IMG/VR virus record: IMGVR_UViG_3300023283_000076 | Span: 32,001 to 96,000 of that record | Length of the DNA: 64,000 bases | From: a virus | Lineage: Duplodnaviria > Caudoviricetes | Reading direction: 5' to 3' (one strand) | In this document: positions 13,897-45,848 of the stretch, in pieces | Position numbering within the stretch: the first letter of the stretch is position 1 | Layout: every line of letters begins with the position of its first letter | Translations under genes and position numbers: made by a program | Notes under the pieces: generated by a model | Databases searched by the model: none | The model's input: only the letters and a program-made list of their open reading frames with translations | Told to the model about the DNA's origin: nothing

Positions 13897-14071
13897 TGAG
13901 AATCATTATCATTTGCAATAGCGTTCGTATATGATAAAAATGTTTGACAATTTTTTGAAACTATGATACGATGAAAGTAATATGCAAAAAATCTGAATGC
14001 GAACGATTATCATTTCCAACCCTACTTGAGAATGGTTCGTATTCTCACAAGCGTGATGAGAATGATTCTCG
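13897..14071. promoter_or_regulatory. Fur-box-like sites
   Basis: TGAGAATcATTATCA (13897), TGCGAACgATTATCA (13998), TGAGAATgATTCTCG (14057) vs TGATAATnATTATCA. Confidence 0.6.
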
Positions 14072-14487
14072 TTTGTACCCTCATTACCATCCTCAATACC
14101 CTTTCCTACACTTGAAAAATATAAAATACTCTATCCATCATCCAAAAACATAGGGGGCCAAGCTATAAAATTGATTAGTCCCCTAGGGCAAAATCAATAC
14201 CCTTCAAAAAAAGTGTAATAAAAACAATTAGTTATGGTAACAAGGGTCTCAGTGAATTTTTTTAAATTTTTTGACGATAGGGGCCATGCCAAAAAGAGTT
14301 TTACAAGGATCTCCTAATATAGATAAAAAATAGAGTAAAAACAACACTTTAATGCAGGGTTTTTAAAAATTAATAATATAGTGTTTATAGGTTTTTCAGA
14401 ATGATATTATAATGATATCACGATAATATTTATATAATATGATTTTTACAGTTCACATAATAGTATATGTTATTGAAATATATTGAA

Positions 14488-14513
14488 AACCCCTAACGCA
14501 CGCGTTAGGGGTT
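14488..14513. repeat. 26-bp palindrome at the inner end of the left arm
   Basis: AACCCCTAACGC-AC-GCGTTAGGGGTT. Confidence 0.9.
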
Positions 14514-14602
14514 ATGATATATATGCTGATAGTGTTACGCTTAACGAAATATTTAATGGTTTGAAGGTATCTAATAAATATAAAATACTGTATACATAAT
14601 TA

Positions 14603-15150
14603 ATGAGAATTCAAACCATTCTTTCATTATATGAAGCCCTCAAACCTTCTCAATACAGAGATATTGTAAAAAATTGGGATAAGACATATTTGGAAAAGGT
14701 ATTTAAAAATTCTCCGCATAAGAAGGATAGGAATGCTTATAGGTTATACATTCCTATTTCGGCTACTGATAATATTGTTATAGAGCCCAATCCTAGGATT
14801 AAAGATTATTTGGATAGTAATGATTTTGAAATAGGAGATTATGTTAAGGGTTATGTTAAAAAGAAATCAGATGGTAGAACCATGAAAATCGGAAAAGTGT
14901 TGCCTGATGAACTAAAACAAGTATTTGTTAATGATCCTAAAAGGCGAGCATCCAAACATGAAACTATGGTGGTAATATCCCGGCATCCGTATGATATAGC
15001 TGGAATGAGTACTGACCGGGGGGTGGACTAGTTCCCAAAATTTAGTTAATGGATCGTACTGTAGATTTGTTCCTAACGATATTAAAGCGGGGACTATTAT
15101 TACATATGAGACAAATAATTTTAAAATATACATTTTTATTTTACCTATAT
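14603..15150 (+). pseudogene. Phage hypothetical protein frameshifted at a G6 run
   Basis: ORF 14603..15031 ends GMSTDRGVD; shifted frame continues RGWTSSQNLVNGSYCRF..DIKAGTII and soon stops. Confidence 0.55.
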
Positions 15151-15570
15151 ATTAAAAATAAAAGTATACTAAGAATTAAAAAATATGATAGCAAAAACAC
15201 ATAAATTAAAATGATGAATAAAAGAATACCAGTCCTAACGCCAGATATTTCTGAGTTATCTAGATCTACGGAGAATTTTATAATATTTTTAATCATTTAT
15301 ATACACTTCAATTTATTTTGACTATTATAACACAAGTCTAATGAAGTTTCTACGTTTATTCATTTCTCGAATGATACGATTCAAATAGGTATTCGATTTT
15401 TTTTCAAGGATTCTTACTTTTCGTGAATCGTCTTTATACATTATTTGATATACGGTTAGAAATATTTGGATCTTTTAAATCATACGAAATGTTTAGCGTA
15501 TAGTTTTTTGGCATTTACGGGAACAATATGTCCATCATCGTCATAAACAATAAAACTTTCATTGTTAAAA

Positions 15571-16213
15571 TTAATCGTTTTCATAAATTAAACCTCCAAC
15601 AACCCTAGAAATGTTTTCATAGGTAGGTTTAATATCATGATAAACATCATTTCTGATGATAAAACATCCATTCTTTATACGATTAGATAGATTCATCCAA
15701 TTTTCACCGATTGAATGTAACATTTCGTGAATATCATCAGTATTTTTATTATGTAATTCTTTGTGTAAAAAGAACTTCCTAGCAAACATTTGTAGACTGT
15801 TTCTTTTCCAATCCCTAGCTCTCCATAGAAAAGCATTACAAACGTCTTCACGAGGAACTGAGAAAGCCCTAGAGTCAAATACAGCCATCTATATCTCTTT
15901 CTTTAAGAATTTGATTGAAATATGCTGTCATGTATGCTGCACTTAGTGAAACCTGTTTTGAATGATTGTAATTAAACCACCCCTGTGTTTCATGCGTTTC
16001 ATAATCAGTAAGTAAAAATGTGACTTCATCCGACTGAATAAATGCGGCCTTGAAACCTTGCATTTGTTTTGAAACCATAAGAGCACTCGTGTCCATTGCA
16101 TCCATGAGTCTTCGCAAATGGATATTTACCCGAATAAACGTCTCCCGTAAGTGTAGTATCAACCATCTGTAATAATTCTCCGTTAAATAATAATAACATA
16201 AATCATTAAACAA
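15571..16213 (-). pseudogene. thg1: tRNA-His guanylyltransferase (Thg1)-like, split and N-terminally degraded
   Basis: AFIQSDEVTFLL, QGWF...K.VS.SA..MT..FN, AVFDSRAFSVP..DV.N.F.WR..D..RNSLQM; catalytic RLDG motif not found. Confidence 0.8.
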
Positions 16214-16323
16214 TTCAAGCCATTAACAGTTAAATAATTCGTTAAAATAATAAATCAATAGAAATCCGACTTTTGCATTCTTAGAATCAAAGATTAATAT
16301 AGTTTCCTTGAATATGAATTATT

Positions 16324-17523
16324 TTAATTATATTCCGTTGCATTTTTTCTGTTCAAATAATCATCAGAAATAGATTTTAAAATCAATCGACCAATAGTAG
16401 TATCAGGAATTTCATATTCAAGAGGTTTAATTACAGCACCTTCCCGAATGTGAGTTCCTGTGATCGAATCCTTTCCATCAGTATATTGCCCTATTGTGCC
16501 ATAAAAAATTGGCCCACGATAAAGCTCTGGAACAGTTTCAATTCCAAATCCTTCCATAACTTTAAGCATGTTTTTGTATGGAAGATATTTACCCTTTCCG
16601 GGTTCGCCTATATAAACATCAAATACTCTGAAATTGGTTTCATTCAACCCATAATCTAAATCTTGAACAGCTTTTCCATATATTTCGCCAATGATATATA
16701 TCGGCTTATTTACTGACGCATCTTCTTTGAGACTTTCCGCTACTTCATAAATATCAAACCGCTCATGAAATTTCTTGAAGGCTTTCATATACAAATTGTT
16801 TGTATTAGCTTCATTATCCTTGAAAGCTAACCCCTTTGAAGAAAGTCCCTTTGAAGTTACAATACAATTAGTATACGGAATTTCTTCGTGAACAGGGTGC
16901 TCTTGCACTCGCTCTCCATTAACATAATAATAATTAGGCCATACACCAAAACAACACCATGTGCCATGAAGCTTTTCTGTAATAACACATTGAATACCTA
17001 AAACCTCTAATGCTTGCTCATATTGAGGATGATTCTTGATATTTTCAATATCATACTTCAAAGTCTTACCAGAAAGATTACAAACCTCACCACTCATCTG
17101 TGTAGGAATTTCAGGTTCCCATTTTACAATATATAAAAATTGAGAAACATCTGTCCCAATATCTTCTTCACCTACAGACATGGCTTCTTCCATACCATAT
17201 TCATTACACAAAATACCATCAACAATAGGATATAATAACCCTAAACTCGTCTCTCCACGAAGCTTAACAGCCTTTACACGATTACCTCTAGAACCAGCTA
17301 GTTTACCAATGCCCTTCTCTACATCCCATAAGTTCATGTCTTCTAAAATGTATCGAGGAACAAGAGTTTGCTCAGGAATGTATACAACAAGATCACCTTC
17401 ATTAAATTGACCCTTTTTAACAATACATTGATATCCCAATACATCAGCAAACTCTAATGCATCTGCATTAGGATGTGGACGAATCCTTTCGATTTTTTCA
17501 ATTGTCGCTTTTCTATCTGCCAT
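16324..17523 (-). CDS. RNA ligase, DRB0094/Rnl2-like family
   Basis: HPNADALE N-domain; TEKLHGT (motif I), GEIYG, FRVFDV, EGAVIK, LILKSIS..YL. Confidence 0.88.
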   Translation of the reverse strand: MADRKATIEKIERIRPHPNADALEFADVLGYQCIVKKGQFNEGDLVVYIPEQTLVPRYILEDMNLWDVEKGIGKLAGSRGNRVKAVKLRGETSLGLLYPIVDGILCNEYGMEEAMSVGEEDIGTDVSQFLYIVKWEPEIPTQMSGEVCNLSGKTLKYDIENIKNHPQYEQALEVLGIQCVITEKLHGTWCCFGVWPNYYYVNGERVQEHPVHEEIPYTNCIVTSKGLSSKGLAFKDNEANTNNLYMKAFKKFHERFDIYEVAESLKEDASVNKPIYIIGEIYGKAVQDLDYGLNETNFRVFDVYIGEPGKGKYLPYKNMLKVMEGFGIETVPELYRGPIFYGTIGQYTDGKDSITGTHIREGAVIKPLEYEIPDTTIGRLILKSISDDYLNRKNATEYN

Positions 17524-17527
17524 ATAG

Positions 17528-18655
17528 TTAACTCGCTTTTTCAAACCATGGTATTTCTAATTCGTTAAATCTCTTAAGCTGTCCGTCATCATAATATTCA
17601 ATTTTATTTTTATATTCATATCCATCAGAATCTTTACGATGAATCAAATTATTATTCGAATCAAATTCTTTCCAATATTCATATCCATCAGAACTTTTAC
17701 AATGAATCAAATTATTATTCGAATCATATTCTTTCCAATATTCAACTTCATCGGAACTTTTATAATGAATCAAATTATTATTCGAATCATATTCTTGCCA
17801 ATATTGAAATCCATTAGAATTCTTATAATGAATTACATTATTATTGGAATCAAATTCTTGCCAATATTCATATCCATCAGAATTCTTATAATGAATCAAA
17901 CTATTATTGGAATCATATTTTTTCCAATATTCAACTTCACCAGAATTCTTATAATGAATCAAATTATTATTCGAATCAAATTCTTGCCAATATTCATGCC
18001 CATCAGAGTGGTTATAATGAATTAAATTATTATTGGAATCATATTTTCTCCAAGATTCTATACCATCAGAATTCTTAAAATGAATTAAATTATTATTGGA
18101 ATCATATTTTCTCCAAGATTCTATACCATCAGAATTCTTAAAATGAATTACATTATTATTCGAATCAAATTCTTGCCAATATTGAAATCCATCAGAATCT
18201 TTATGATGAGTCAAATTATTATTCGAATCAAATTCTTGCCAATATTCATGCCCATCAGAATCTTTACGATGAATCAAATTATTATTCGAATCAAATTCTT
18301 TCCAATATTCATATCCATCAGAACTTTTACAATGAATCAAATTATTATTCGAATCATATTCTTTCCAATATTGAAATCCATTAGAATTCTTATAATGAAT
18401 CAAATTATTATTGGAATCATATTTTTTCCAAGATTCTATACCATCAGAATTCTGATAATAAATCAAATTATTATTCGAATCAAATTCAATGCTATCTTTA
18501 TTATTCTTTAACCACCTGACATAATCTTTATGATCACCGTTAACTTGATCTAATAACTCAAGCGGAAATCCAATAAGATTATTATTTTTTACAAATTCAA
18601 CAGCACTAGTACATGCATCGCGTTCATTTAAAAATTTTTCAGTTAATGTATTCAT
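17528..18655 (-). CDS. Tandem 21-aa repeat protein (beta-repeat, YD/MORN-like)
   Basis: ~14-15 repeats of (E/K)(Y/F)DSNNNLIH(Y/R/F)K(N/D)SDG.EYW.; 63-bp DNA period. Confidence 0.85.
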   Translation of the reverse strand: MNTLTEKFLNERDACTSAVEFVKNNNLIGFPLELLDQVNGDHKDYVRWLKNNKDSIEFDSNNNLIYYQNSDGIESWKKYDSNNNLIHYKNSNGFQYWKEYDSNNNLIHCKSSDGYEYWKEFDSNNNLIHRKDSDGHEYWQEFDSNNNLTHHKDSDGFQYWQEFDSNNNVIHFKNSDGIESWRKYDSNNNLIHFKNSDGIESWRKYDSNNNLIHYNHSDGHEYWQEFDSNNNLIHYKNSGEVEYWKKYDSNNSLIHYKNSDGYEYWQEFDSNNNVIHYKNSNGFQYWQEYDSNNNLIHYKSSDEVEYWKEYDSNNNLIHCKSSDGYEYWKEFDSNNNLIHRKDSDGYEYKNKIEYYDDGQLKRFNELEIPWFEKAS

Positions 18656-18771
18656 TTGTTTACTCCATGGGGTTTCAATCAGTGAATTTTAAAGTAGGGC
18701 AAATACCACTCTTAACAGCTTTCATCTTTTCAATAATTATGTTATCAGAATCACTAATAATACCAGAAAGT

Positions 18772-18972
18772 CTATATTTTCTGAACAAAAATATACCATA
18801 TCCAGTCGCTATGGCTATCCATAACAAATATCCGATGACTAAAGATGTCAAAATACCTCCAGACCAAGAAAAGTGTTCCCATGTAATAATATAGAAATGG
18901 TGACATCAACGAAAATATACCCAGTCCTATCATGGATATTATCCATGATACGAAAAAAATTATGAATACCAC
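18772..18972 (-). CDS. Small membrane protein
   Basis: Hydrophobic ORF co-oriented with neighbours. Confidence 0.5.
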   Translation of the reverse strand: MVFIIFFVSWIISMIGLGIFSLMSPFLYYYMGTLFLVWRYFDIFSHRIFVMDSHSDWIWYIFVQKI

Positions 18973-19175
18973 CGACCATATAAATTACCAGAAAAATGTA
19001 CATACATTTTTAGCAGGATTTTTAAAAATAAGATTAGTTATTCTATATGTCTTGCTCTTTTTACTTATACTTAATTCTTTCACCAGTTTTTCTCCTAAGT
19101 TTTAACCAGTATTACATATATCATACATTAAGTCAAGAAGCTTCTAAACTTCTTCTATAAAATTAATATAAAAAC

Positions 19176-19427
19176 CTAACATAATCCTTCTTCTTCCTTT
19201 CCTTCTTCTTCTTTGATAATATTAGATATAAATATCTGTACTAAATAATTACCCGCATCAATATGAGTCTTGAATCCCTTTACACGACCATAACCCCCAT
19301 AAATCGATAACGCATCCCATCCACTATCATATTCAAAAATAGACCCCAAAAGTATATCTCCATAATAAAACATATATCCATCATCTGAATAATATACGAA
19401 ATTATAGTCCGATTCCTCAGTTTTCAT
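19176..19427 (-). CDS. Hypothetical protein
   Basis: ORF track; overlaps the stop of the upstream gene. Confidence 0.65.
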   Translation of the reverse strand: MKTEESDYNFVYYSDDGYMFYYGDILLGSIFEYDSGWDALSIYGGYGRVKGFKTHIDAGNYLVQIFISNIIKEEEGKEEEGLC

Positions 19428-19630
19428 AATAAATCCTCTTTATATGAATAATCTTCTCTTAAAGCATCTGTAATAGAAATCACTATACATCCGTGTTCAA
19501 TTTTAAACATCATGGAAGACGTAATAAGTAATCTACTTATACCATAATCATCATCATGAAGCAAAACCTCTACATCGCCGTGTTCGGCTTTTAGCCTTTC
19601 TAAATTTTTAATTAATTCACTTATAATCAT
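19424..19630 (-). CDS. Hypothetical phage protein
   Basis: MIISELIKNLERLKAEHGDVEV, common phage small-protein start; RBS GGAA. Confidence 0.7.
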   Translation of the reverse strand: MIISELIKNLERLKAEHGDVEVLLHDDDYGISRLLITSSMMFKIEHGCIVISITDALREDYSYKEDLL

Positions 19631-19817
19631 ATTTTAATTTCCTTTCAATTTTTGCCATTCTTTTATTCCTGATTTCTATTCGTCAATATACTACAGAATG
19701 GAATCAATGTCAATTCAATCCTTAAAAACATAAATGATCCTAAATTATATAATAAAAAATGTACCAGAATATAACATTAAATAATTCGTTAAGCTCATCA
19801 TAACCTACATATATACC

Positions 19818-19847
19818 AAAACCCCTAACGCACGCGTTAGAGGTTTT
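19818..19847. repeat. 30-bp palindrome at the inner end of the right arm
   Basis: AAAACCCCTAACGC-AC-GCGTTAGAGGTTTT. Confidence 0.9.
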
Positions 19848-20276
19848 TAATATATTTCAATAACATACATTATTATGTGAACTGTAAAAATTATATTATA
19901 TAAATATTATCGCAATATCATATTGATAACATTCCGAAAACCCTATAAACACTATATTTTCAATTTTAAAAAAATACTACATAAAGTATTGTTTTTAAAC
20001 ACTTTTTTATGATGATTGGGTGGAAAATGTAAAAATATATTTGGCATGGCCCGCAAAATATAAAAATATCAAAAAAATTCTCTCAGACCCTCTTTACCAT
20101 AAGTAACTGTTTTTATTACATTTTTTTATAATGTTATTAAGTTTTTCCCTAGGGGACTAATCAATTTTTACCTTGGCCCCCTATGTAATATAGATGATTT
20201 TTATAAAACAGTTTAAAATAGTAAAAACAATTGTAAGTATTGTTGATACAGTTTGGGATGGTAATGAGGGTAAAAA

Positions 20277-20482
20277 TGAGAATCATCCTCATCGGCGTAT
20301 TGCAAATGATTATCATTCTCATCACGCTCATGAGAATAAGAATCATTCTCAAATAGCGTCATAAATGATAATCATTCTCATTTAAGATTTTAGATATATT
20401 ACTTCCATCGTATCACATTTTTAAAAAGTTGTCAAGCATTTTCATCATATGCGAACGCTATTACAAATGATAACAATTCTCA
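20277..20482. promoter_or_regulatory. Array of five Fur-box-like sites
   Basis: 7-1-7 matches at 20277, 20307, 20337, 20366 (TGATAATcATTCTCA), 20468. Confidence 0.65.
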
Positions 20483-20546
20483 TTTAGCGTAGGACATAAT
20501 GATATTCTCTACCATATTATATCACAAAAAAAGTTTAAATCAAGGG

Positions 20547-20575
20547 TTGACATTGTATATATTATATGGTAAAGG
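20547..20575 (+). promoter_or_regulatory. TTGACA-N17-TAAAGG promoter-like motif
   Basis: Upstream of the first right-arm operon. Confidence 0.65.
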
Positions 20576-20590
20576 TACTAAAGTAGGAAT

Positions 20591-21250
20591 TTGTATTTTT
20601 CCATGTTGATATTGTGTACAAGTATTTTTTATGTTATACTGAGGGTTCAAATTATATTGGAGAATATAAAAATGATTAACAAGATATATAATATTGTTAG
20701 TATGGAAATGGATAACTCTAGGGTACGTTTTAACTACACTTCTAAGGTTACTATTGCGATATGGTTGACTCTAACTGTAGAGGTGTTTATTCATGTTGCA
20801 AGTGCGTTTCTATTTTTAGAAGTAAATAATGATGGCCACATTTATAGTGATGTTACTTTTAATCAATTTGCATTTTTATTAAATATTTTCCCATACCTGT
20901 TACTTTGTTTATGCAGTTTGATTGTTTTAATTGATAAGATTATTGGCGTATTAACTTCATTTATTACTGAGGATGATTATGTAGAAGAGCATTTCCTTTC
21001 TAGCCGGATTATTGGTGTTCCTTCTTATGAAATTGAAAATATTTTATTTTTACAAACGATATATATGGTATTATATATTACCGTGATGCCAATATTGTTT
21101 TTAGTTGTATTTCCGTCATGGATTCCACTTGTTGTAATAGTAGGCGTTATTGTTGGTGTAATGTATCTGGCGAGATTTTCATATCGTTTGAGTAAGCGAT
21201 TAAGGACACATATTAATGATCCTAATGCACATACAAAGGAGAATGCATAA
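20591..21250 (+). CDS. Multi-pass membrane protein (start probably ATG 20672)
   Basis: Several TM segments; C-terminal RF...RL.THINDPNAH. Confidence 0.75.
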   Translation: MYFSMLILCTSIFYVILRVQIILENIKMINKIYNIVSMEMDNSRVRFNYTSKVTIAIWLTLTVEVFIHVASAFLFLEVNNDGHIYSDVTFNQFAFLLNIFPYLLLCLCSLIVLIDKIIGVLTSFITEDDYVEEHFLSSRIIGVPSYEIENILFLQTIYMVLYITVMPILFLVVFPSWIPLVVIVGVIVGVMYLARFSYRLSKRLRTHINDPNAHTKENA

Positions 21251-21729
21251 TGTTTAATAAGATACTTAAAATATTTAACGATGATATTTCGTTTTTACAA
21301 TTTATAGCAGCAGTGACTGGTCCGGCTTCAGGTATAGCCATGGCCATGTTAATAGATCTTGATAAAAGTTCCAGTTCTGTAATTGTTACATCTGTTCCAA
21401 TGTTTTGGTTTATGCTGCTAGCTCTAATTACAGCTATTGTTAAGATTGGAGCTATGTATGTAGAATATGCTACCAGAGGTGAGTATACTATTCCTTCTGA
21501 CTGGATGTTATTTGATGATAAAGGTTTGTTGCATAGTTTGACTCTTTATTGGTATATACTCGTATTGACCACATATACTCTTATAGTCTTGTATTATACA
21601 CCATTATCTATTACAATTGGAATATTGTTAATTATAGGATTGACTGCGTTATCGAGATTCGTGTTTGGAATCATGGGTAAACTCGATACTCATGTTAATG
21701 ATGCTGATGCACATTTGAAGAAAAAATAA
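21250..21729 (+). CDS. Multi-pass membrane protein, paralog of the previous gene
   Basis: TM segments; C-terminal SRF...KLDTHVNDADAH. Confidence 0.8.
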   Translation: MFNKILKIFNDDISFLQFIAAVTGPASGIAMAMLIDLDKSSSSVIVTSVPMFWFMLLALITAIVKIGAMYVEYATRGEYTIPSDWMLFDDKGLLHSLTLYWYILVLTTYTLIVLYYTPLSITIGILLIIGLTALSRFVFGIMGKLDTHVNDADAHLKKK

Positions 21730-21833
21730 ACAAGGATATTTAAGAATGTTTTATATAATTGAATATTTCTATTGTTGTATGGATGTTGCAATAAAGTCTT
21801 GTATTTTTAGTCATGTATTCAAAGGAATAAAGA

Positions 21834-22979
21834 ATGAAATATTTTAGATTATCATATATAGTATTATTGTCATGTTTATTATTGTATAGTGAGGATGTTA
21901 TTGTTAAAGAATTATCTGTTAATGACGTTAGCATCATTGAACTATCGAATATATCTGAAGATAATTTAAAAGATATTGAGATAACTGTTTTTGGTCGATC
22001 ATTTACATTAGAACTCTCTAAAAACGTTGAATTGTTTTCCACATTGGTTTCTAATAATGGTGATGATTTATTTTTACGTGGAACGGTATCAGGTATTTCT
22101 AATTCTTGGGTTCGGTTGAATAGAATTGATGGAGATTTCAGTGGTGGATTCTTTGATGGTCAAGAACTCTATTTAATTGATCACAGTATGGGACTGACTA
22201 ATAATTCACTTAATGATAATACTATTGTATACAGATTATCTGATTTAAATATTCCATTTCATATTGATGATGGTGGTATTGAAAATATTTCTGTTAATGA
22301 TACAGAAAAAGATTATAAAACATTTATTGGACATTTACGTGAATTTGTTAAAATTCAAGAAACTGCTGTATTAGCATTACCTTTAACGATTGTCAGTGAT
22401 GTTGAATTTAATGATATTCATGGTGATAATGCTACATCTATAATAGCAGGTAGAATTAATTTAATTGATGGTATTTACACTAATCAATTAGGAGTTGGGC
22501 TTATATTTTATCATCATGAAATATTATCAGATAATGGTCCATTGATATCGAATGATGCATTACAATTATTAAGAACGTTTAGGACTTTTATGGATACTGG
22601 TATTGGGCAAGATATCCCCTTTGAAGGTATAGCTCATTTAGTTACTGGTAAGAATTTTGATGGTAGCACTATTGGTACTGCATTCATGGATGTTCTTTGT
22701 AGCAGTTTTGCTGGATACGGTGTTAATCAAGATTTTTCTAATGATACTACCAGTGCATTGATATTGGCACATGAGATCGGTCATAATTTTAGTGCTCCAC
22801 ATGATGGACAACCGAATTCTGCATGTGAAGATGAAACATTTAGGGGAATCATGAGTGCTAGTATTAATGGATCGCAACAGTTTAGTGATTGTAGTCTTGA
22901 TCGAATGGCGCAAGCAGTTTCTTCTGCAAATTGTTTAGTAGAACGTGGAGAAGTTATTTTTTCTGATGGTTTTGAATAA
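21834..22979 (+). CDS. Secreted reprolysin-like (M12B) zinc metalloprotease
   Basis: Signal-peptide-like N-terminus; HEIGHNFSAPHD; GIMS Met-turn; C-terminal IFSDGFE. Confidence 0.85.
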   Translation: MKYFRLSYIVLLSCLLLYSEDVIVKELSVNDVSIIELSNISEDNLKDIEITVFGRSFTLELSKNVELFSTLVSNNGDDLFLRGTVSGISNSWVRLNRIDGDFSGGFFDGQELYLIDHSMGLTNNSLNDNTIVYRLSDLNIPFHIDDGGIENISVNDTEKDYKTFIGHLREFVKIQETAVLALPLTIVSDVEFNDIHGDNATSIIAGRINLIDGIYTNQLGVGLIFYHHEILSDNGPLISNDALQLLRTFRTFMDTGIGQDIPFEGIAHLVTGKNFDGSTIGTAFMDVLCSSFAGYGVNQDFSNDTTSALILAHEIGHNFSAPHDGQPNSACEDETFRGIMSASINGSQQFSDCSLDRMAQAVSSANCLVERGEVIFSDGFE

Positions 22980-23014
22980 TTGACATTTATAAAAAGCTAT
23001 GATAGAGTAAATGA

Positions 23015-23797
23015 ATGAGAATAATTTCAAAATATTCAGATTATTATGATTCGGTGATGGGATCAGGTTATGACCCTTCATTGATTTTCAAACGTAAAGG
23101 CGCTTTTGATGATCCTATTGATTCATATGTGAATTTTGATGATTCATTTGGATATAGAGCCACGGTAGATCATACTGATCAGGCTCGCTATCTTGGAACA
23201 AAGTTGAATCCTGAATATTTTGGATATGTTTATCTAGGTAATCGAAGTAAAAAACTTCATAATAATAGAATCATTTTAGAGAAGGCTTTCAGAGCACATT
23301 CCAAGAGAAATGTTACTATTATTGATAGTGTTTTTTACGTAATAGGTTTCTGTGGTAAGACATATGTGATTTATGAAATTGATTATAGCATAGACAATAA
23401 TCGATCATGTTTTCGAATAGTGAATAAAAAGAATAAATTATTTCAAAAAGTGGATAAGAAAAAACGGGACATGATTGTAGTAGGTGAAATTCCTGATTTG
23501 ATACGGGGAAATGTTCATGACATTTTTCTTTATCTTAATTGCCCTATTTTTCTTTTAGAGATGGTTAAATATAATAACAGAGTTAAAATAATTCGTAACC
23601 CGATCTTGAAAGATTTAGGATTTGCTGCTATACTTGATCCATATACTGCTTATCAGGAATTGTCTATGTACATGGGATCGGTGTTTGCACCATCTGAGCC
23701 TGATATGGTAGATATATCTGATAAAGACTTATCTGAGTCCAAGGGATTCAATGATTGGTCTTTTAAAAAGTATCCAACAAAAAGGAAGAGTAAATGA
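23015..23797 (+). CDS. Conserved phage hypothetical protein; paralog of 12865..13644
   Basis: ORF track; paralog. Confidence 0.85.
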   Translation: MRIISKYSDYYDSVMGSGYDPSLIFKRKGAFDDPIDSYVNFDDSFGYRATVDHTDQARYLGTKLNPEYFGYVYLGNRSKKLHNNRIILEKAFRAHSKRNVTIIDSVFYVIGFCGKTYVIYEIDYSIDNNRSCFRIVNKKNKLFQKVDKKKRDMIVVGEIPDLIRGNVHDIFLYLNCPIFLLEMVKYNNRVKIIRNPILKDLGFAAILDPYTAYQELSMYMGSVFAPSEPDMVDISDKDLSESKGFNDWSFKKYPTKRKSK

Positions 23798-23907
23798 TTT
23801 ATATATTTGGATTTGTTTCATTGTTATTGGTTGCAGTCACCGTATGGTGTTTTGCCAAAGTATGCAAAACTGATCGATATTCATATCGTGAAGTTGATGA
23901 CAATTAG
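23794..23907 (+). CDS. 37-aa single-TM protein; paralog of 12755..12868
   Basis: Manual translation MIYIFGFVSLLLVAVTVW. Confidence 0.65.
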   Translation: MIYIFGFVSLLLVAVTVWCFAKVCKTDRYSYREVDDN

Positions 23908-23955
23908 CGCTTAACATTGGTTCTAATGGTTTTCACTGTGCTGTAGCTGTATTTA

Positions 23956-24213
23956 ATGGAAGAATGGAACATGACTGATATTATAAGTGGCGTAATCGAA
24001 GAACGTGGTAATGGTTTGCCTAGTGTTGATGATTATGCCTATCACAGCTTGACTAACACGGTCTACCGAATTGTTAACACTGGTTGTATTGTTACAGGAC
24101 GTGTTGGGCAGGGTAATTTAATGCATGTAAAACTAGAAGAATATGGTGATCCGTTTGATTTGACAGATGAACAATTTGATGATATTGTATGGGCTTTACA
24201 TTTAGAAGAATAG
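23956..24213 (+). CDS. Hypothetical protein; paralog of 12143..12415
   Basis: ORF track; paralog. Confidence 0.8.
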   Translation: MEEWNMTDIISGVIEERGNGLPSVDDYAYHSLTNTVYRIVNTGCIVTGRVGQGNLMHVKLEEYGDPFDLTDEQFDDIVWALHLEE

Positions 24214-24245
24214 TAAGTATTGACAGAAAAAAGTTGAAAAAAGTG

Positions 24246-24274
24246 TTGACAAAGAATAAATAAAGCGTTAGAAT
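24246..24274 (+). promoter_or_regulatory. Sigma70-like promoter of the ncRNA cluster
   Basis: TTGACA-N17-TAGAAT; left-arm copy has TAGGAT. Confidence 0.75.
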
Positions 24275-24281
24275 GGTTTCC

Positions 24282-24361
24282 AAGTTGGAGACAGAGAGTA
24301 ACTGAACCATATGATCCATAGTCATTTTCTCCGGTTGCTCTAGCGTAAATGTCTCCAACTT
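24282..24361 (+). ncRNA. Stem-closed small RNA domain A
   Basis: 11-bp AAGTTGGAGAC/GTCTCCAACTT closing stem at the predicted TSS. Confidence 0.55.
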
Positions 24362-24362
24362 T

Positions 24363-25099
24363 TAATTAAGAAAAAAGAAGTACAGTTTTGGGCATGACCG
24401 TGATAGCTCATTGAAAGATGGGTAACGGGAAAGGTGCTACCCACCTTCCCGCCTAGAGAAATTTAGGTTGAGTCATGCAAGCCGAGACTCTGGAAAATTC
24501 GTCCATAATAATTCAGGCGGATTTCAGACGAAACGGGATGGTAGGTTAGACCGAGGCCAACTGGTAAGGTCGTTCTAAGGTGACGCTTAGTACCTACATG
24601 TCAACATCTTGAGCGTTGGAGAGTCAAAGGGTAGTTATTTGGTGTGAGTCTTAGCGGATAAATGCTGAATAGCAATGTTAACGGTGAGCTAAACCTTATC
24701 GTGAAACATGGTCGAAAGTAATCTTAGCGGATGAAACGGCAAACGGTGTTGTCATATTTCGTACCTCAAAAGGGTATGAAGTGATGGAGACGGCACATCG
24801 TTAGGTAGTTTGCAGTCTTTGTAGCTCAATAGGTAGAGCTACCGCCTTATAAGCGGTTTGTTGTAGGTTCAAGTCCTACCAAAGACCCATAATAGATAAC
24901 TGGGTTTAAAATGCAAAAGTCCGTCTCGGTAAAAGGTGAGCAAGGTAGTTAAGTCTACACTGCGAAAGCAGAATGTAGAATCTTTGAGGGCCGCAAGCTT
25001 GATAAGATTTGGTTAGAAGCGCACGTCGAGGGCCGTACAACCTTCGGGGGAAGCTGAAAGCCGAGTAGCCTTTTATGACAGCGCAAACGCTAGCGCTTT
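24363..25099 (+). ncRNA. Large ornate ncRNA, GOLLD-like, with embedded tRNA
   Basis: ~740 nt, GC-richer, ORF-free, many hairpins (e.g. CTGC-GAAA-GCAG; TACC-TCAAAA-GGGTA), GAGTAGC near 3' end, internal tRNA; family by resemblance only. Confidence 0.55.
24815..24889 (+). tRNA. tRNA-Ile(UAU)
   Basis: GTCTTTG/CAAAGAC acceptor, ACCGC-CTTATAA-GCGGT, GTAGG-TTCAAGT-CCTAC. Confidence 0.9.
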
Positions 25100-25238: not shown

Positions 25239-25260
25239 CTATTTACTTTAACCTCAACAT

Positions 25261-25907: not shown

Positions 25908-25939
25908 TAGGTCTATTTAGAAGAAATCTAAAGGATAGT

Positions 25940-33876: not shown

Positions 33877-33935
33877 CATTTATAATTTTATTTGATATTA
33901 TTAATGAAACATAAATCATAAGGATGTAAGAATTC

Positions 33936-35078: not shown

Positions 35079-35129
35079 GCTTGACTTCAGCATAGTTTTT
35101 TGATAGTATAATTAATACATTAAACAGGA

Positions 35130-35519
35130 GTGAAACAAATGAATGACAAAACAAACCCGAATCTAGTAACTCGTAATGGTCAACGAATCCATGTGATTCA
35201 TGATCGTGATAACCGTGCTAGTTATGGATATGTTCTACAACCGTCTGAAGATGGTCAAAATGTTCATGTTCGAGTAGCACGGTCTGTTTGTTCTAAGCAA
35301 GATAGCTTCAACAAGAAAGTTGCTATTCGTGTAGTAAAGAACCGTCTTGATTCTGGTCCTAAAGGTTCCAATCAGCATCGTATGTTTGATTCTACGATTG
35401 CGGTTCCAGTACCATCTAATTCTAATGAATGGCGTGAGCTAGACCAGACTATTGTTAGCCTTGCTAATTTGAAGCTTACTGAACCTGAAAAGATTCGCCG
35501 TTGGCATTCCAGTGAATGA
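35130..35519 (+). CDS. Hypothetical protein; paralog of 2349..2750
   Basis: ORF track; paralog. Confidence 0.8.
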   Translation: MKQMNDKTNPNLVTRNGQRIHVIHDRDNRASYGYVLQPSEDGQNVHVRVARSVCSKQDSFNKKVAIRVVKNRLDSGPKGSNQHRMFDSTIAVPVPSNSNEWRELDQTIVSLANLKLTEPEKIRRWHSSE

Positions 35520-35976
35520 AGAAATAAAACCATGTCCATTCTGCGGTAAATCCGTAGATATGGACGACGGCGACACATTATATCCAATTGGAGTATATTG
35601 GAGAGAAAGTGAATATGTTCCGGATGAAAGACATTATGTAGGGCACAAAGAACACAACCCTGAAACGGATCATCCATGTTACGGCATGCATTGTCCAGAG
35701 TCATCAGGGGGATGTGGAGCCCAAATTACTGGAGACTCATTAGAAGAAACTATTGACAATTGGAACACCAGAGTATATACTTTAAACATGTCTCAAAACA
35801 ATGAAAATTCTACAAAGGTAACACTTCAAAATAAGTATGGCACGTATACTGTTGAAGTTCCTAATAGTGACTTGACTATTAATGAAATGATGTCGCAGGT
35901 TATAGCTCCAGTATTAAAGGCTGCAACATATCCATCACAACTCGTAAACCAATACATAAACCCAGATATTAAATAG
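35512..35976 (+). CDS. Lar-like restriction-alleviation zinc-finger protein
   Basis: IKPCPFCG...C....GGCGA.....EE.I..WNTR. Confidence 0.65.
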   Translation: MNEEIKPCPFCGKSVDMDDGDTLYPIGVYWRESEYVPDERHYVGHKEHNPETDHPCYGMHCPESSGGCGAQITGDSLEETIDNWNTRVYTLNMSQNNENSTKVTLQNKYGTYTVEVPNSDLTINEMMSQVIAPVLKAATYPSQLVNQYINPDIK

Positions 35977-35987
35977 GAGATAATCTC

Positions 35988-36395
35988 ATGGGTACACGAA
36001 GCGTAACAAAATTTCAAGAAGATGGTGAAACCCTAGTAGCAATATACAGGCAGTATGATGGATACCCGGAAGTTGTTGGTAAAGAAATTTTTAATTTTTT
36101 GAATAGTATTACTATGGTAAATGGTATTCCTTGTACTGGTAAAGATGGAGTACGATATGCTAATGGTGTTGGATGTCTAGCTGCACAATTCATCGCAGAT
36201 AATAAGTATGATGTTGGCGGATTGTATATAACTACTCCAGATAATACACAAAAATTTAATTACACCATTAATTATCCTATTAAAGGTATGGGATATGATG
36301 ATCCTATTATTACAGTTGATGGGGAATATGGAGATTTGTTTTTCTCTGGTTCATTAGAAGAGTTTAAGGAATTTATTGAAAATTTCCAAGATTAA
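35988..36395 (+). CDS. Conserved phage hypothetical protein; paralog of 1942..2367
   Basis: ORF track; paralog. Confidence 0.85.
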   Translation: MGTRSVTKFQEDGETLVAIYRQYDGYPEVVGKEIFNFLNSITMVNGIPCTGKDGVRYANGVGCLAAQFIADNKYDVGGLYITTPDNTQKFNYTINYPIKGMGYDDPIITVDGEYGDLFFSGSLEEFKEFIENFQD

Positions 36396-36404
36396 AAGTT
36401 TTTT

Positions 36405-36896
36405 ATGAATATATTCGACTTTAATGTTGGAGATTATGTAGTACTCGATTGTCCGAGTTATGACGGATTTGATCCTACAGATTTATATATGGTAAAAAAT
36501 GTTGAAAAATCTAGAATCATGATAGATAATTTAATTCGTGGGTTTCAATGGATAGGAGAAAATGGCCCGAAAGAATTGTCTCGCTGGCCTGAAGGTACAC
36601 AATTCAGAAAAGCATATAATCTAGAAATTGTGTTAGGGTTGATATACCATAGTAACGAACGTATATGTTTTTTTGATCATAAAATACCAGAACCTACGGC
36701 GAGTGATAAAGCAGTAGGTTTACTACTAGGTAAGTATATCGATGATGTGAAGAATTTTCCTTTGGATGATTATTTTCACAAAGCTTTTAGACAAATTGAT
36801 GTGATAAGAGAAAGTAGAATGGATGATATTGTTCATACTCTTTTGAATGATGCACCGTTGTTTTGGTATTATTTTGATAAATTCAAAGATGAATAA
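36405..36896 (+). CDS. Hypothetical protein, right arm only
   Basis: ORF track. Confidence 0.7.
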   Translation: MNIFDFNVGDYVVLDCPSYDGFDPTDLYMVKNVEKSRIMIDNLIRGFQWIGENGPKELSRWPEGTQFRKAYNLEIVLGLIYHSNERICFFDHKIPEPTASDKAVGLLLGKYIDDVKNFPLDDYFHKAFRQIDVIRESRMDDIVHTLLNDAPLFWYYFDKFKDE

Positions 36897-36955
36897 AATG
36901 AATGATTTAATTGAAGCATCAATTTACGTAGGAGAAATTTAAAATAAATACAATT

Positions 36956-37708
36956 TTGAAATCATTTGATAGTTACTATATTCAGGCGTTTGAAGATGGG
37001 TCATGGAATGAAGTTTATGACCCGCATGTAGCAACTGTTTTCATATCAGAAAAAGCGGCAGAGGATTTTGCAAACAACAAAACCGATTTTAGTGAATATA
37101 TTACACTAATTAGTGGTTCTGATAATATTTTTGCAGAATACAATATTTTTGATGAATGGGTAGCTAATGGAATGATTCGTCGTCATTTTGAAGCTATGAA
37201 TCCTACATATAATGTCATGTATGATCCTGAAAAGCATGATTGCATGGATGTTCTGAAATGGAATTATCAGTTTGCTATCAAGGGCGATGATATGATGATT
37301 CATCAAGAAGTTTATAATTCATGGTGTAGTAGAATATGGGACCATTTCAATTTTATAAATGACTTCAACTCATATTGTTCAGGAGATTATACAGAAAAAT
37401 TTGTGAGCTTCGAAATCAAGGTTGATAGGAACGCAAAACTCGAAGACTTCAAAAAAGAATTAGATTTGGTTCTTGACAATTTTGAATTCAATTATGTAGA
37501 TAAAGATGGTGGGTTGATTATCAGTATCTTTGAACATGATCTTTGTGAAACTCGTTCTATGGTTCTCATTATGAATGATCGTGAAAACGATGAATGGAGT
37601 ATTGAAAACGAAAGATGTGGCTCTGCTTCACCTGTAATAAATCGAGAATCATTAGAAAAATGTTTCAAAAAAATTCGGAAAAAATATTGGTATTATAGTT
37701 ATTCATAG
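36956..37708 (+). CDS. Hypothetical protein, right arm only
   Basis: 250-aa ORF. Confidence 0.75.
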   Translation: MKSFDSYYIQAFEDGSWNEVYDPHVATVFISEKAAEDFANNKTDFSEYITLISGSDNIFAEYNIFDEWVANGMIRRHFEAMNPTYNVMYDPEKHDCMDVLKWNYQFAIKGDDMMIHQEVYNSWCSRIWDHFNFINDFNSYCSGDYTEKFVSFEIKVDRNAKLEDFKKELDLVLDNFEFNYVDKDGGLIISIFEHDLCETRSMVLIMNDRENDEWSIENERCGSASPVINRESLEKCFKKIRKKYWYYSYS

Positions 37709-37728
37709 TAGATTGGAGAAATATAATC

Positions 37729-37911
37729 ATGAAAACATTTAACAGTATATCATTTCCTGCTTTTATTTTTTTTGCAGTTATGTGTGTTATTCCATGGGGA
37801 TTTATGGTACACTCTTATGGAGTACTATATCAACTCGGTGGGGTAATTGTTCAACTAGTAGGATTGATTGGGTTGATTGGGTTAATTAAAATGTTTAACA
37901 AAAAGGATTGA
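37729..37911 (+). CDS. Small two-TM protein
   Basis: RBS GGAG; hydrophobic. Confidence 0.65.
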   Translation: MKTFNSISFPAFIFFAVMCVIPWGFMVHSYGVLYQLGGVIVQLVGLIGLIGLIKMFNKKD

Positions 37912-37991
37912 AAAAGTATACCACTATTAATTAAAATAAAAATCAAGAATAATATCTTGACAAAGTTTCTAAATAGTGTATAATGTTTTAT

Positions 37992-38065
37992 GTTGAATAA
38001 CAAACGAGACCTGACATGATCTTTCAGGCTCTGGACACTTTCGGGAAGGGAGTTGTTGTTCAACA
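37992..38065 (+). ncRNA. Candidate stem-closed small RNA upstream of the CAU tRNA
   Basis: 12-bp GTTGAATAACAA/TTGTTGTTCAAC stem right after a TTGACA..TATAAT promoter. Confidence 0.45.
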
Positions 38066-38108
38066 ATTTTAAAGTGCATAAGCAAGGTGTTACGAACACG
38101 ATTTTTAA

Positions 38109-38185
38109 GGGTCCATAACTCAATTGGTTAGAGTAAACCACTCATAATGGTTAAGTTGCAGGTTCGAGTCCTGCTGGACCCACCA
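38109..38185 (+). tRNA. tRNA-Ile2(CAU), probable TilS substrate
   Basis: GGGTCCA/TGGACCC, AACCA-CTCATAA-TGGTT; C29:G41 and C5:G68 fit TilS determinants. Confidence 0.88.
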
Positions 38186-38322
38186 ATTAAAGGCACTAGT
38201 TCAATTTAATAATACTCAATGTATATAAGGTGACAGACCTTAAAGTATTTATTAATATAAACATGTAGGCAATTTCTCTTACTTTATCTTAAACTTTTTT
38301 AATAACATAAGGAGTTATTGAA

Positions 38323-38604
38323 ATGAATTTCGCAAATTTTAAAGATGCAAAGCATCCTAGTGCCAAAATGCGTAATGACGCGGTGGTGCATAAAGTGAAG
38401 GATTATGGATTTTCCGAAATCGGGGAAGAAAGAAGTTTTGGGATGTCATGTGCCATGGAAGTATTTCGTCTGTCGGAAAATTTCCTTCATCGTCAATATT
38501 ATCATCGTGATTGTGCTATCGAAGCATTGGAATCTGGTGATACTAATACTGCTCTAGAGCATTTGAAGAGTATTGGCGATAGTGGCCATGGAATAACAAT
38601 TTAG
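38323..38604 (+). CDS. Hypothetical protein
   Basis: RBS AAGGAG; ORF track. Confidence 0.75.
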   Translation: MNFANFKDAKHPSAKMRNDAVVHKVKDYGFSEIGEERSFGMSCAMEVFRLSENFLHRQYYHRDCAIEALESGDTNTALEHLKSIGDSGHGITI

Positions 38605-38612
38605 GAGTAAAA

Positions 38613-38738
38613 ATGCTAAGTCATATTTTCAAATTCCCATATAACGAAAAAGAGTTACGTCAAATAACCCTTGAATCTATGGAAAATGACATAACATCCT
38701 TTATTAATGATATTATGTATGCTTTGTTATTAAATTAA
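38613..38738 (+). pseudogene. 3'-truncated copy of 686..1108
   Basis: MLSHIFKFPYNEKELRQITLESMENDITSFINDIMYA then stop. Confidence 0.7.
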
Positions 38739-38799
38739 TTATTGACATTTACAATTCTCTGTGATATATTAGAAACTACACGCTAATTAGGATTTCTCT

Positions 38800-39078
38800 A
38801 TGAGATTTCTAAAGAATAAGAAACGTACCATCGAAGTATGGTTTTGGCATGGTGCGGTAAAGTTAAATAGGGCGCTAGTGCTCGAAATTCTTGCCTCTGA
38901 ATTACATAAATTGGAGTTGATGTATGAAGGGCCAGAACGTGACCAGAATGTACTAGGTATTCGATATTATGGGACAGTAGATGATTTTATAAATGCTCTT
39001 CCTAATCGTCCTGTAATGAAACTAAGCGATCCGGATATCATTTATACAACTCAATTTAGAAATTTCTCTCAAAGGTGA
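38800..39078 (+). CDS. Hypothetical protein
   Basis: Own promoter upstream; ORF track. Confidence 0.65.
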   Translation: MRFLKNKKRTIEVWFWHGAVKLNRALVLEILASELHKLELMYEGPERDQNVLGIRYYGTVDDFINALPNRPVMKLSDPDIIYTTQFRNFSQR

Positions 39079-39081
39079 ATA

Positions 39082-39660
39082 ATGGAATTTAAATTTATGC
39101 CAAACATACATAATATAGTTTATAACGCAATCCGTACCCCTGACGGGACCGTTCTTGAGTCTCGTCACCGTCATGATTATGTAGAATATACTGACGAAAA
39201 TGGTTATGAGTATATGGTGGACGGTGGTTTAGAGTATCTTCGTAGGGGATGGACACCTGATGCCCCTGATTATAAAGAATTGTCATTAGGTATTGATGAT
39301 CCTCATGGGAAAGTTCGTGAACATGCTAAATGGGGAACATATGGACCTAATGGAGATCAACCATTAAAATTTGTGACTATTAAAGAAATGTCAACAGATC
39401 ATATTAACGCATGTTTGGAAAATGTTCCTAGTATGTCTGATAAGATTCGTACTGTCATGGAAAATGAATTGACCATGAGAGAGCTTCCGCCAGTACCTAA
39501 AGGTATGATATACTTGGGTATGTCTGGTGATTTCAATCCTGTCCACGTCGATATTCGTGCATGTTTTTTGAAAGGTGATGAAGATTGGATGACATGGGAA
39601 AAAGATGTATTAGATGGTGATGGTTTTTCTTTACATTATGCCGGATATATTTCGAATTAA
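39082..39660 (+). CDS. Conserved phage hypothetical protein
   Basis: NAIRTPDGTVLESRHRHDY...VDGG.EYLRR; paralog at 1..323. Confidence 0.85.
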   Translation: MEFKFMPNIHNIVYNAIRTPDGTVLESRHRHDYVEYTDENGYEYMVDGGLEYLRRGWTPDAPDYKELSLGIDDPHGKVREHAKWGTYGPNGDQPLKFVTIKEMSTDHINACLENVPSMSDKIRTVMENELTMRELPPVPKGMIYLGMSGDFNPVHVDIRACFLKGDEDWMTWEKDVLDGDGFSLHYAGYISN

Positions 39661-44165: not shown

Positions 44166-44173
44166 TTAAAAAA

Positions 44174-44740
44174 TCAATTCGTATCGTCTTTTTTACCTTT
44201 TAATTCTGGATATTTCTTATACATTTTAGAAACAAAATCATTTATTTCTCTATCTTCCTCTTCATTATAAAGCGGGGCTATTTTATCATTAGTTTTTTGT
44301 TGAAATTCTGTAATAGTATCAATGATATTTAATGCATTAACATGAATATGTTTTTCGACCAGTATTCTATCATATAATTGATTAATTGTGGTATCTAAAT
44401 ATTTACTTTTGTTAAACATGGATATAAGTTTAATAAGCCCATATGCAGACACTAAAACTAATACCAATTGCAATAATGTATTATCGCTACCATTGGTAAA
44501 CATAAGAAATATAAAACTAGAAACAATAATATAAAATATTTCTTTTGTATGATAAAGAATTTTATGTTTGAAAATAAAATCAAATTGATTTTTATGTAAC
44601 ATTGTTTGAGAATGAACCTGAGACCATAAATTATTTTTAATTAACGTGAGTTCTCTATCATTCTTGAGTGCTTCGGAGTTTTCGTTATTCTTTAAATTAT
44701 TTTCAATTGTATTAATTAGTTTCTTAACTCTTTTATTCAT
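44174..44740 (-). CDS. Two-TM coiled-coil protein
   Basis: ORF track. Confidence 0.75.
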   Translation of the reverse strand: MNKRVKKLINTIENNLKNNENSEALKNDRELTLIKNNLWSQVHSQTMLHKNQFDFIFKHKILYHTKEIFYIIVSSFIFLMFTNGSDNTLLQLVLVLVSAYGLIKLISMFNKSKYLDTTINQLYDRILVEKHIHVNALNIIDTITEFQQKTNDKIAPLYNEEEDREINDFVSKMYKKYPELKGKKDDTN

Positions 44741-44920
44741 TTCAAAACTCTTGTTAAAATAGTGTGTATAAATTGTACCATAAAAATACGAAAAAGCTAA
44801 TAGTGCATAACACTAAACAGCATTCTGGTAAATATTTTTTCATATTAATCCTATTATAAACATTCTAATTATAATTTATAAATTACAATTAGAGCATCCA
44901 ACCTAATCAGTTATTTATTT

Positions 44921-45154
44921 CTACGGCGAAATTTTGTTTCCCATATTATCTAAGATATAAACATGAGGAACATTTGCCATTCTAACTTCATGTTTATAAA
45001 AATCCAACATTTGTATAGATTCAAACATATTTGCCTCATTAACAATTCGATCATCTGAAATAATACGTGATGGATCAAACGAAACATGTGTGCCATATGA
45101 ATGAAATGTATAAGTAGAACGATTTTGTGATCTCTTACGTACAACTCTTTTCAT
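44921..45154 (-). CDS. Hypothetical protein
   Basis: ORF track; RBS AAGGGA. Confidence 0.6.
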   Translation of the reverse strand: MKRVVRKRSQNRSTYTFHSYGTHVSFDPSRIISDDRIVNEANMFESIQMLDFYKHEVRMANVPHVYILDNMGNKISP

Positions 45155-45287
45155 GTGTATAGTTCCCTTCTTTTTATAATTTAAGTTAATAATTAAAGTA
45201 CGTAGTTAAGTATGTAATTAACTACTCGTTAAGTATATATGAATACGGGCATGTATGTCAAACCATTAACGTATGCGTTAGCAGTTT

Positions 45288-45701
45288 TTAGTGTTTGATC
45301 CATGCAAAGCCATTATGTGTAATACATATTACGATATGCTTGAACAACCGTAAAATTAAAACTCCTTCATCACAATCTTCAACAATAATTTCACTACTTG
45401 GTATTATAAGGAATTTTTCTTTGATTGTTTTCAATTGTACATTTTCCATAAAATCTGGTGTAAGAATCTTGATCATTTTCTTCAACGCTTTATCAGCATC
45501 TGGTCTTGGAAGAATTGTATCATATCCTGTTCCTACACATTCAGGACATTCCCATTCATCATAAGAGATATCTCCTATATCAGCATTGTCTATATATCCT
45601 AGACCCATACATTCAAGACACTTTTTAGAGTTCAATTTATTTTTTTCTTTATTGTATAGACTAGTGTCTTTTTTCATAAAACACTCCATTTGTAAATCCA
45701 T
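45288..45701 (-). CDS. Protein with DnaJ-type CxxCxGxG zinc finger
   Basis: CLECMGLG...CPECVGTG. Confidence 0.65.
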   Translation of the reverse strand: MDLQMECFMKKDTSLYNKEKNKLNSKKCLECMGLGYIDNADIGDISYDEWECPECVGTGYDTILPRPDADKALKKMIKILTPDFMENVQLKTIKEKFLIIPSSEIIVEDCDEGVLILRLFKHIVICITHNGFAWIKH

Positions 45702-45707
45702 TGCAAA

Positions 45708-45848
45708 TGATTATCATTCTCTAAAAATTAATATTTAATTTACGAATACGAATCATTCGCATTAACTTGATTTCATATTTCACCCTTTAGTATAACAGAA
45801 AAAAAAATTAAATCAAGGGTTGACATTGTATGTATTATATGGTAAAGG
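45708..45848 (+). promoter_or_regulatory. Two Fur-box-like sites plus a TAAAGG promoter, homologous to 20460-20590
   Basis: TGATTATcATTCTCT (45708), TACGAATcATTCGCA (45747), TTGACA-N17-TAAAGG (45820). Confidence 0.6.

Follow-up and report, generated by a model that had tools for sequence, protein, structure and literature searches.

The window analyzed here is a 64,000-nucleotide stretch of viral DNA (Duplodnaviria; Caudoviricetes), comprising bases 32001–96000 of the 270,653-bp virus record IMGVR_UViG_3300023283_000076 in IMG/VR, which is estimated to be ~79% complete. It contains three clusters of palindromic sites that resemble operators of the ferric uptake regulator Fur. A first-pass annotation had placed these clusters at 13897–14071 (cluster A), 20277–20482 (cluster B), and 45708–45761 (cluster C), and all three are present at these positions. 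As that annotation had also proposed, every cluster lies between divergently oriented genes, and a promoter of the form TTGACA-N17-TAAAGG occurs within 300 bp of each.

To avoid circularity, we scored the sites against the published Fur-box consensus of Xanthomonas campestris, which has 18 specified bases (PMC1790865). Across the whole 270-kb genome, 20 sites had at most 3 mismatches of 18, against a simulated expectation of 0.67 ± 0.72 (maximum 3) in 60 third-order Markov simulations. Nine of the 20 fall in the window, all within clusters A, B, and C. The 34 kb of non-coding early DNA contains 18 sites versus 0.07–0.15 expected (200 simulations for each Markov model, the training DNA being this same stretch with its boxes), and the reversed, uncomplemented pattern gave 0 sites in the same DNA. 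The comparison with an AT-rich background that had been suggested along with the clusters thus stands at 20 sites versus ~0.1–0.7 simulated; the sites are real and far above AT-matched background.

Using a 21-bp matrix made from the sites themselves, we mapped clusters at genome positions 854, 6981–7047, 20888, 45894–46074 (A), 52274–52485 (B), 77699–77764 (C), and 96319–96456, all within the first 100 kb of the genome. The arrays hold 3–6 boxes per row. Palindromes carrying C for A in each half-site (genome 2784–2804, 3877–3897, and 100664–100684) were left out as terminators because each is the core of a longer, GC-clamped hairpin with a T run behind it; they resemble two-way terminators directly behind TAAAGG-type promoters. 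A run of TGATGA repeats (31548–31673), which inflates loose consensus counts, was also discarded.

Several features argue that the sites are Fur boxes. The phage consensus is identical across 19 bp to the Fur box of Xanthomonas campestris pv. campestris, a consensus built on nine genes that Fur represses (Blanvillain et al. 2007, PMC1790865). The phage half-sites show mainly G/T variation at one position, a known Fur tolerance and the very difference between the Xanthomonas form of the box and the Bacillus/Escherichia coli form. The first-pass identification as Fur boxes therefore stands, but its count of the G at half-site position 4 as a mismatch does not: since this base is preferred in the Xanthomonas-type box, the sites are better Fur boxes than had been thought. 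Three pairs of 7-1-7 sites overlap with a 6-bp shift (20301/20307, 20331/20337, and 45702/45708). Overlapping sites shifted by 6 bp are the classical layout of Fur operators.

The exact 19-mer also occurs at a minimum of 120 bacterial loci. Among the matches listed, nearly all are intergenic, and the taxa include Burkholderiales, Nitrosomonadales, SAR86, Pelagibacteraceae, and Lysobacterales. Of 20 genes beside the bacterial 19-mer that we checked, 14–15 are of Fur-regulon type; the 20 include three TonB-dependent receptors, four FeoB proteins, an FTR1 permease, two iron-type periplasmic binding proteins, fur itself, an extracytoplasmic function (ECF) sigma factor, AhpC, and a ZnuA-type protein. 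The motif is thus not private to this phage lineage, as it occurs in bacteria and in unrelated phages, and we regard the Fur-box identification as well supported computationally. With the 7-1-7/19-bp boxes of Xanthomonas, Bacillus subtilis, and E. coli, the phage sites share the palindrome, the G/T tolerance, and the 6-bp shift. In contrast to those boxes, they occur 3–6 in a row with no iron gene near and are positioned downstream of the predicted transcription start, not on the core promoter itself.

The major capsid protein of the phage is 65% identical to that of XacN1 (Xanthomonas), 63% to Xoo-sp13, 62% to RAS14 and CM1 (Stenotrophomonas), and 47% to RsoM2USA (Ralstonia), and the relatives of a GP88-family protein encoded in the window rank in the same order. 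Because of these two rankings, we assign the phage as an uncultured XacN1-like jumbo myovirus. It is apparently virulent, and its host is probably a Xanthomonadales-like gammaproteobacterium. Its closest relatives in culture are phages of Xanthomonas and Stenotrophomonas, and this Fur box is in use in Xanthomonas. No terminal repeat was detected in this record, and the record (79% complete) contains no Fur-family gene.

Relatives of the early region were sought in several ways. No GenBank phage matches at the DNA level, and the single other assembly with the locus is 100% identical. Queries with the 260-aa, 822-aa, HerA-like, and zinc-finger proteins found no matches in viral contigs or metagenomes, two DNA anchors (the inner-end element and the promoter-leader cassette) gave no useful early-region relatives, and the capsid relatives recovered are late-region fragments without boxes. 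Because the four cultured relatives (309–385 kb) hold 0–2 boxes each, we consider the Fur-box arrays lineage-specific.

Promoter geometry of the boxed cassettes

The sites, which exist far above chance and equal a known Fur box, have a consistent computed placement relative to the predicted promoters; promoters and start sites throughout are consensus predictions. The 22 strict TTGACA-N16-18-TAAAGG promoters of the genome all fall in its first 101 kb, and for seven of these the boxes are at most 300 bp away. The first-pass annotation implied that the boxes contact these promoters, but no TAAAGG-type promoter is overlapped by a box. Each cassette instead contains a second, ordinary sigma-70-type promoter with an extended -10 that fires through the boxes, so that these sit in the initial transcribed region of a neighboring, opposite-firing promoter, at ~+18 to +125. 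The arrays lie 80–270 bp upstream of the TAAAGG-type promoters in DNA of 27–30% GC.

In cluster A, the TAAAGG-type promoter (13804–13832, minus strand) fires leftward to a 259-aa gene. Box A1 (13894–13914; 19-mer start 13895, 1/18 mismatch; the boxes are listed without strand) lies at ~+23 behind a weak rightward promoter (13836–13864), and 30 bp downstream of this box follows the -35 at 13944. This -35 belongs to a sigma-70-type promoter (13944–13972, plus strand; TTGACA, 17, TACGAT with TG) predicted to fire rightward through A2–A4. Box A2 (13995–14015; start 13996, 3/18) is degraded relative to its partner in copy B, the degenerate box-like unit at 14024–14044 (position weight matrix score 11.3) is the homologue of overlapping pair B3, and box A4 (14054–14074; start 14055) has 2/18 mismatches. 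A strong hairpin at 14493–14508 (plus strand) is the probable end of the ~530-nt non-coding transcript from this boxed promoter.

In cluster B, a leftward sigma-70-type promoter at 20435–20407 (minus strand; TTGACA, 17, TACGAT with TG) precedes four boxes, from B4 to B1, through which it is predicted to fire. The first of these, B4 (20363–20383; start 20364, 1/18), is the best box and lies at ~+25 to +45. Behind it follow B3 (20328–20354; starts 20329 with 4/18 and 20335 with 3/18) and B2 (20298–20324; starts 20305 with 3/18 and 20299 with 4/18), which are both overlapping pairs with a 6-bp shift, and then B1 (20274–20294; start 20275, 2/18). A mirror hairpin at 19825–19840 (minus strand) is the probable end of the ~575-nt non-coding transcript. 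Box B5 (20465–20485; start 20466, 2/18) lies at ~+24 to +44 behind a second leftward sigma-70-type promoter (20543–20516, minus strand; TTGATT, 16, TATAAT with TG), which stands back to back with the TAAAGG-type promoter at 20547–20575 (plus strand). The latter fires rightward to a membrane-protein gene starting at 20672.

Cluster C is clearly weaker than A and B, as its sites have 3 (45745) and 4 (45700) mismatches. Its sigma-70-type promoter (45789–45816, minus strand; TTGATT, 16, TATACT with TG) fires leftward, for a 129-aa CXXCXGXG-type zinc-finger gene (45288–45677, minus strand) that lies downstream of both boxes. Box C2 (45744–45764; start 45745, 3/18) occupies ~+18 to +38 of the leader of this gene, and the weak overlapping pair C1 (45699–45725; start 45700, 4/18, matrix score 13–14) lies farther along the same leader. 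The accompanying TAAAGG-type promoter (45820–45848, plus strand) is a copy of the cluster-B cassette with 90% identity. A zinc-finger paralogue outside the window (genome 20925) is 53% identical in protein and keeps the boxed leader at 84% DNA identity.

Clusters A and B belong to a diverged inverted duplication (window ~1–14,300 versus 20,100–39,400) that surrounds a unique ~5.5-kb spacer; its blocks are 73–94% identical and carry early genes, accessory genes, and tRNA genes. Between the two copies, the TACGAT promoter differs in its spacer but in neither its -35 nor its -10, and copy A has exactly one 30-bp box unit fewer than copy B and weaker boxes. The transcripts predicted from these two boxed promoters are non-coding and ~530–575 nt in length. 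No Rfam family matched across 13700–20700, and the two predicted transcripts gave indecisive folding z-scores of -1.3 and -3.1.

Two arrays outside the window have a 23-bp period. Each is flanked on one side by tandem promoters and on the other by the 3' end of a 92-aa Cys/His-rich gene that converges on it. The 3' ends of this gene (7042–7320, minus strand) and of its paralogue (ending at genome 96299) face the arrays, and Pfam returned only sub-threshold matches for the 92-aa protein (a ferritin-like cargo protein and an iron–sulfur membrane protein; E ~0.05–0.08). The small neighboring genes likewise gave only sub-threshold Pfam matches, with no DNA-binding domain recognized. DnaA boxes are not enriched in the window, and none lie near the arrays.

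Arrays in other phages and in T5

The exact box was found in at least 120 viral contigs. Among the matches listed, three or more boxes within 250 bp occur at 16 of 120 viral loci versus 1 of 120 bacterial loci, the two sets of 120 not being random samples. These 16 viral array loci form six groups at the DNA level, the largest of which is T5-like and includes the record Phage NBSal003, and another of which is of a more distant, T5-like Vibrio-phage type. In Phage NBSal003, several perfect DnaA boxes (5738–5830) lie directly beside the Fur-box array. An unrelated viral contig has a tandem array (1810–1888) of three perfect 30-bp units, every one of which is a perfect Fur box, and this array ends ~15 bp upstream of a consensus TTGACA/TATAAT promoter. 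Because the complete unrelated phages that bear arrays encode no Fur gene, a shared host protein would be a simpler binder than a series of lineage-specific phage proteins.

In T5 (AY587007), the annotated copies of direct repeat C together with palindromes E–I (9473–9640) are Fur-box-like sites, with one mismatch at 9577 and 9612 and three at 9473 and 9508. All eight box matches of the 121.7-kb T5 genome (at 9473–9640 and 121086–121243) fall in the two copies of its terminal repeat. The array lies in the injection-stop region, or repeat region 3, for which copies 1–4 of direct repeat C and palindromes E–I are described in a preprint on the T5 injection stop (Davison, bioRxiv 10.1101/866236), and the available part of this source proposes DnaA boxes and mentions Fur 0 times. 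The injection-stop region of T5 resembles the phage studied here in having an array of the same box in early-entering, non-coding DNA. It differs in that the T5 array lies beside pairs of DnaA boxes in a terminal repeat, whereas the arrays described here have no DnaA boxes nearby.

The two-step injection of T5 is a 50-year-old puzzle. The array is situated at the injection stop (shear point ~9618; boxes 9473–9630), and if Fur-box arrays were a general phage device, to which we give a low probability, Fur would be a candidate host factor in this process.

Sites for host regulators are known on phage DNA, as for LexA, DnaA, and single Fur or DtxR operators at toxin genes: stx1 of Shiga-toxin phages is under Fur, and tox of corynephage beta is under DtxR. 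In both toxin systems, a host iron repressor reads phage DNA, as would be the case here. Those systems involve a single operator at one cargo gene of a temperate phage, whereas the large and apparently virulent phage described here has ~20 boxes spread over several early promoters. Multicopy Fur boxes titrate Fur, which is the principle of the Fur titration assay (FURTA). FURTA plasmids, like this phage, place many Fur-box copies on replicating DNA, but they are a laboratory tool.

Possible functions of the arrays

The phage probably reads or soaks up the iron signal of its host. The specific mechanism that we favor, to which we assign an even chance, is that host Fur-Fe forms a multi-dimer roadblock that makes the boxed transcripts inducible by iron starvation. 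The palindromes would be operators for host Fur, and each cluster would occupy bases ~20–125 of a sigma-70-type transcript, whose promoter has a TAAAGG-type early promoter as its back-to-back or tandem neighbor. When the host has ample iron, Fur-Fe(II) dimers would cover the array, two of them on every overlapping 6-bp-shifted box, and would thereby stop promoter escape or elongation. Under iron starvation, the boxed transcripts would be made. The gated products in the window would be the small zinc-finger protein and the two ~530–575-nt non-coding RNAs, which extend into the spacer at the center of the inverted duplication. With ~20 boxes per genome, replication may also draw Fur off host sites as a side effect.

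We infer Fur binding, promoter activity, the direction of regulation, and a benefit to the phage from the DNA sequence. Two patterns of conservation support the roadblock mechanism. The -35 and -10 elements are conserved between the diverged copies, with the best box promoter-proximal, and the boxed leader is kept in two zinc-finger cassettes despite a protein identity of 53%. The interpretation given in the first-pass annotation is partly supported overall: the support is for the Fur boxes, and the two functions it proposed, that host Fur could gate early transcription or be titrated by the replicating array, are putative. Its further suggestion that TonB-dependent receptors are derepressed is pure speculation, since late host transcription may be off.

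A number of observations weigh against a roadblock. The boxes lie downstream of the start site, and the usual Fur repression site is over the -35/-10. The arrays at genome 6981 and 96319 have no downstream gene in the direction of transcription. As the four cultured relatives have so few boxes, the arrays are dispensable for the basic program of the clade. The loss and degradation of boxes in copy A relative to copy B suggest that constraint on the boxes may be weak, and because the cassettes look recently copied, their conservation may reflect history rather than selection. A phage-encoded binder is possible because 21% of the genome is missing. Finally, the roadblock presupposes consensus-predicted promoters and start sites, a host that has Fur and uses this box, and Fur binding predicted from the sites themselves.

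A second explanation, which we consider possible but unlikely, is that the arrays serve mainly as a Fur sponge: replicating arrays would titrate Fur and derepress host iron uptake for iron-needing phage enzymes, and their nearness to promoters would be incidental. Titration by multicopy boxes is the very principle of FURTA, the genome carries ~20 boxes, and the phage encodes a di-iron NrdB. The identical tandem units point to recent amplification, and a sponge would also accommodate the two arrays without a downstream gene and the excess of arrays with three or more boxes in viral over bacterial loci, which was obtained under the same exact-match criterion among the matches listed. As a main function, however, titration has a timing problem, because it requires the high copy number that comes late, when host transcription or DNA is perhaps already gone; T5, which has the same arrays, destroys host DNA within minutes according to the injection-stop preprint (10.1101/866236). 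A sponge also has no need of the consistent +18 to +125 placement behind sigma-70-type promoters, and we found no ferritin or other iron-handling cargo in the phage. It is physically plausible that titration adds to the roadblock effect.

It is doubtful that the sites are operators of a phage-encoded binder or of host Zur or PerR and are Fur boxes by resemblance only. It is common for phages to encode repressors that act on palindromic operators, the zinc-finger genes are boxed in their own leaders in a layout like that of autoregulation, and such a protein could be encoded in the 21% of the genome that is unseen. Unrelated phages with no such protein in common nevertheless also have the arrays, and the genes adjacent to them here have no recognized DNA-binding domain (genome 79% complete). 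Zur or PerR, which the first-pass annotation had named as alternatives, could be suggested by one bacterial match beside AhpC and one beside a ZnuA-type gene. The PerR-type and Zur-type 7-1-7 consensus sequences miss the clusters, as PerR-type matches are scattered elsewhere and Zur-type matches are absent, and the bacterial neighbors are mostly iron-uptake genes. The 19-bp identity to the Fur box argues against all of these binders.

An architectural use of Fur is very unlikely. Coated arrays would here form boundaries against H-NS-type silencing or insulators between converging transcripts, as might be suggested by the distance of the arrays (80–270 bp) upstream of TAAAGG-type promoters in 27–30% GC DNA, by the two arrays flanked by promoters on one side and by the 3' end of a converging gene on the other, and by the location of the T5 array at the injection-stop site, within a long stretch of non-coding DNA. 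Fur is known to reverse H-NS silencing at E. coli ftnA. This use would leave the promoter-proximal position of the best boxes unexplained.

We give still less credence to the palindromes being RNA hairpins in transcribed leaders, with roles in stability, processing, or protein binding, rather than DNA sites. All clusters are predicted to be transcribed, and of 37 non-Watson–Crick symmetric pairs, the transcribed strand has 16 that are G-U-compatible and the other strand 3; the out-of-window 23-bp arrays hold only Watson–Crick and G-U pairs. The remaining 21 pairs, however, are disruptive and mostly show the G/T alternation expected of Fur half-sites, 5 of the 16 G-U pairs are central, where a 1-nt loop is impossible, and the strand bias fits the general G-over-C skew of the phage on sense strands. 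In addition, the array of another phage lies upstream of its promoter, and the identical sequence is a DNA operator in bacteria. Least probable of all is that the boxes are functionless and hitchhiked on a promoter cassette copied around the early region, for while the cassettes are repeated and mobile-looking, copy A is decaying, and relatives lack arrays, hitchhiking does not account for 20 copies that match a host operator over 19 bp, for the tandem amplification of the box unit, or for the independent arrays in other phage lineages.

If Fur binds, part of the early program of this phage would be coupled to the iron status of the host, or that status would be disturbed. Iron limits growth in many natural waters. 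More tentatively, and with a low probability in our judgment, Fur-box arrays could be a general, unrecognized device of large virulent phages of Proteobacteria, located in the earliest-entering or earliest-expressed DNA, with Fur serving as an iron sensor, roadblock, or decoy. Literature text searches found no report of multi-box Fur arrays at early promoters of a virulent-type giant phage. What is new here is the promoter geometry, the contrast in array size between bacteria and viruses, the absence of the arrays from cultured relatives, and the link to T5. Because T5 and its relatives carry the same boxes, a role for Fur is testable in a standard laboratory system.

Other features of the window

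The window contains 19 tRNA genes. Fourteen 63-nt tandem repeats (17496–18614) lie inside a 375-aa gene with RHS-repeat matches, which is adjoined by an RNA-ligase gene (16324–17544). The cluster-B operon includes a gene for a reprolysin-type (M12B) zinc metalloprotease (21834–22979) that is missing from copy A. At 51280–51826, local duplications of ~95–99 nt, 96–98% identical, span a ribosome-binding site and gene start.

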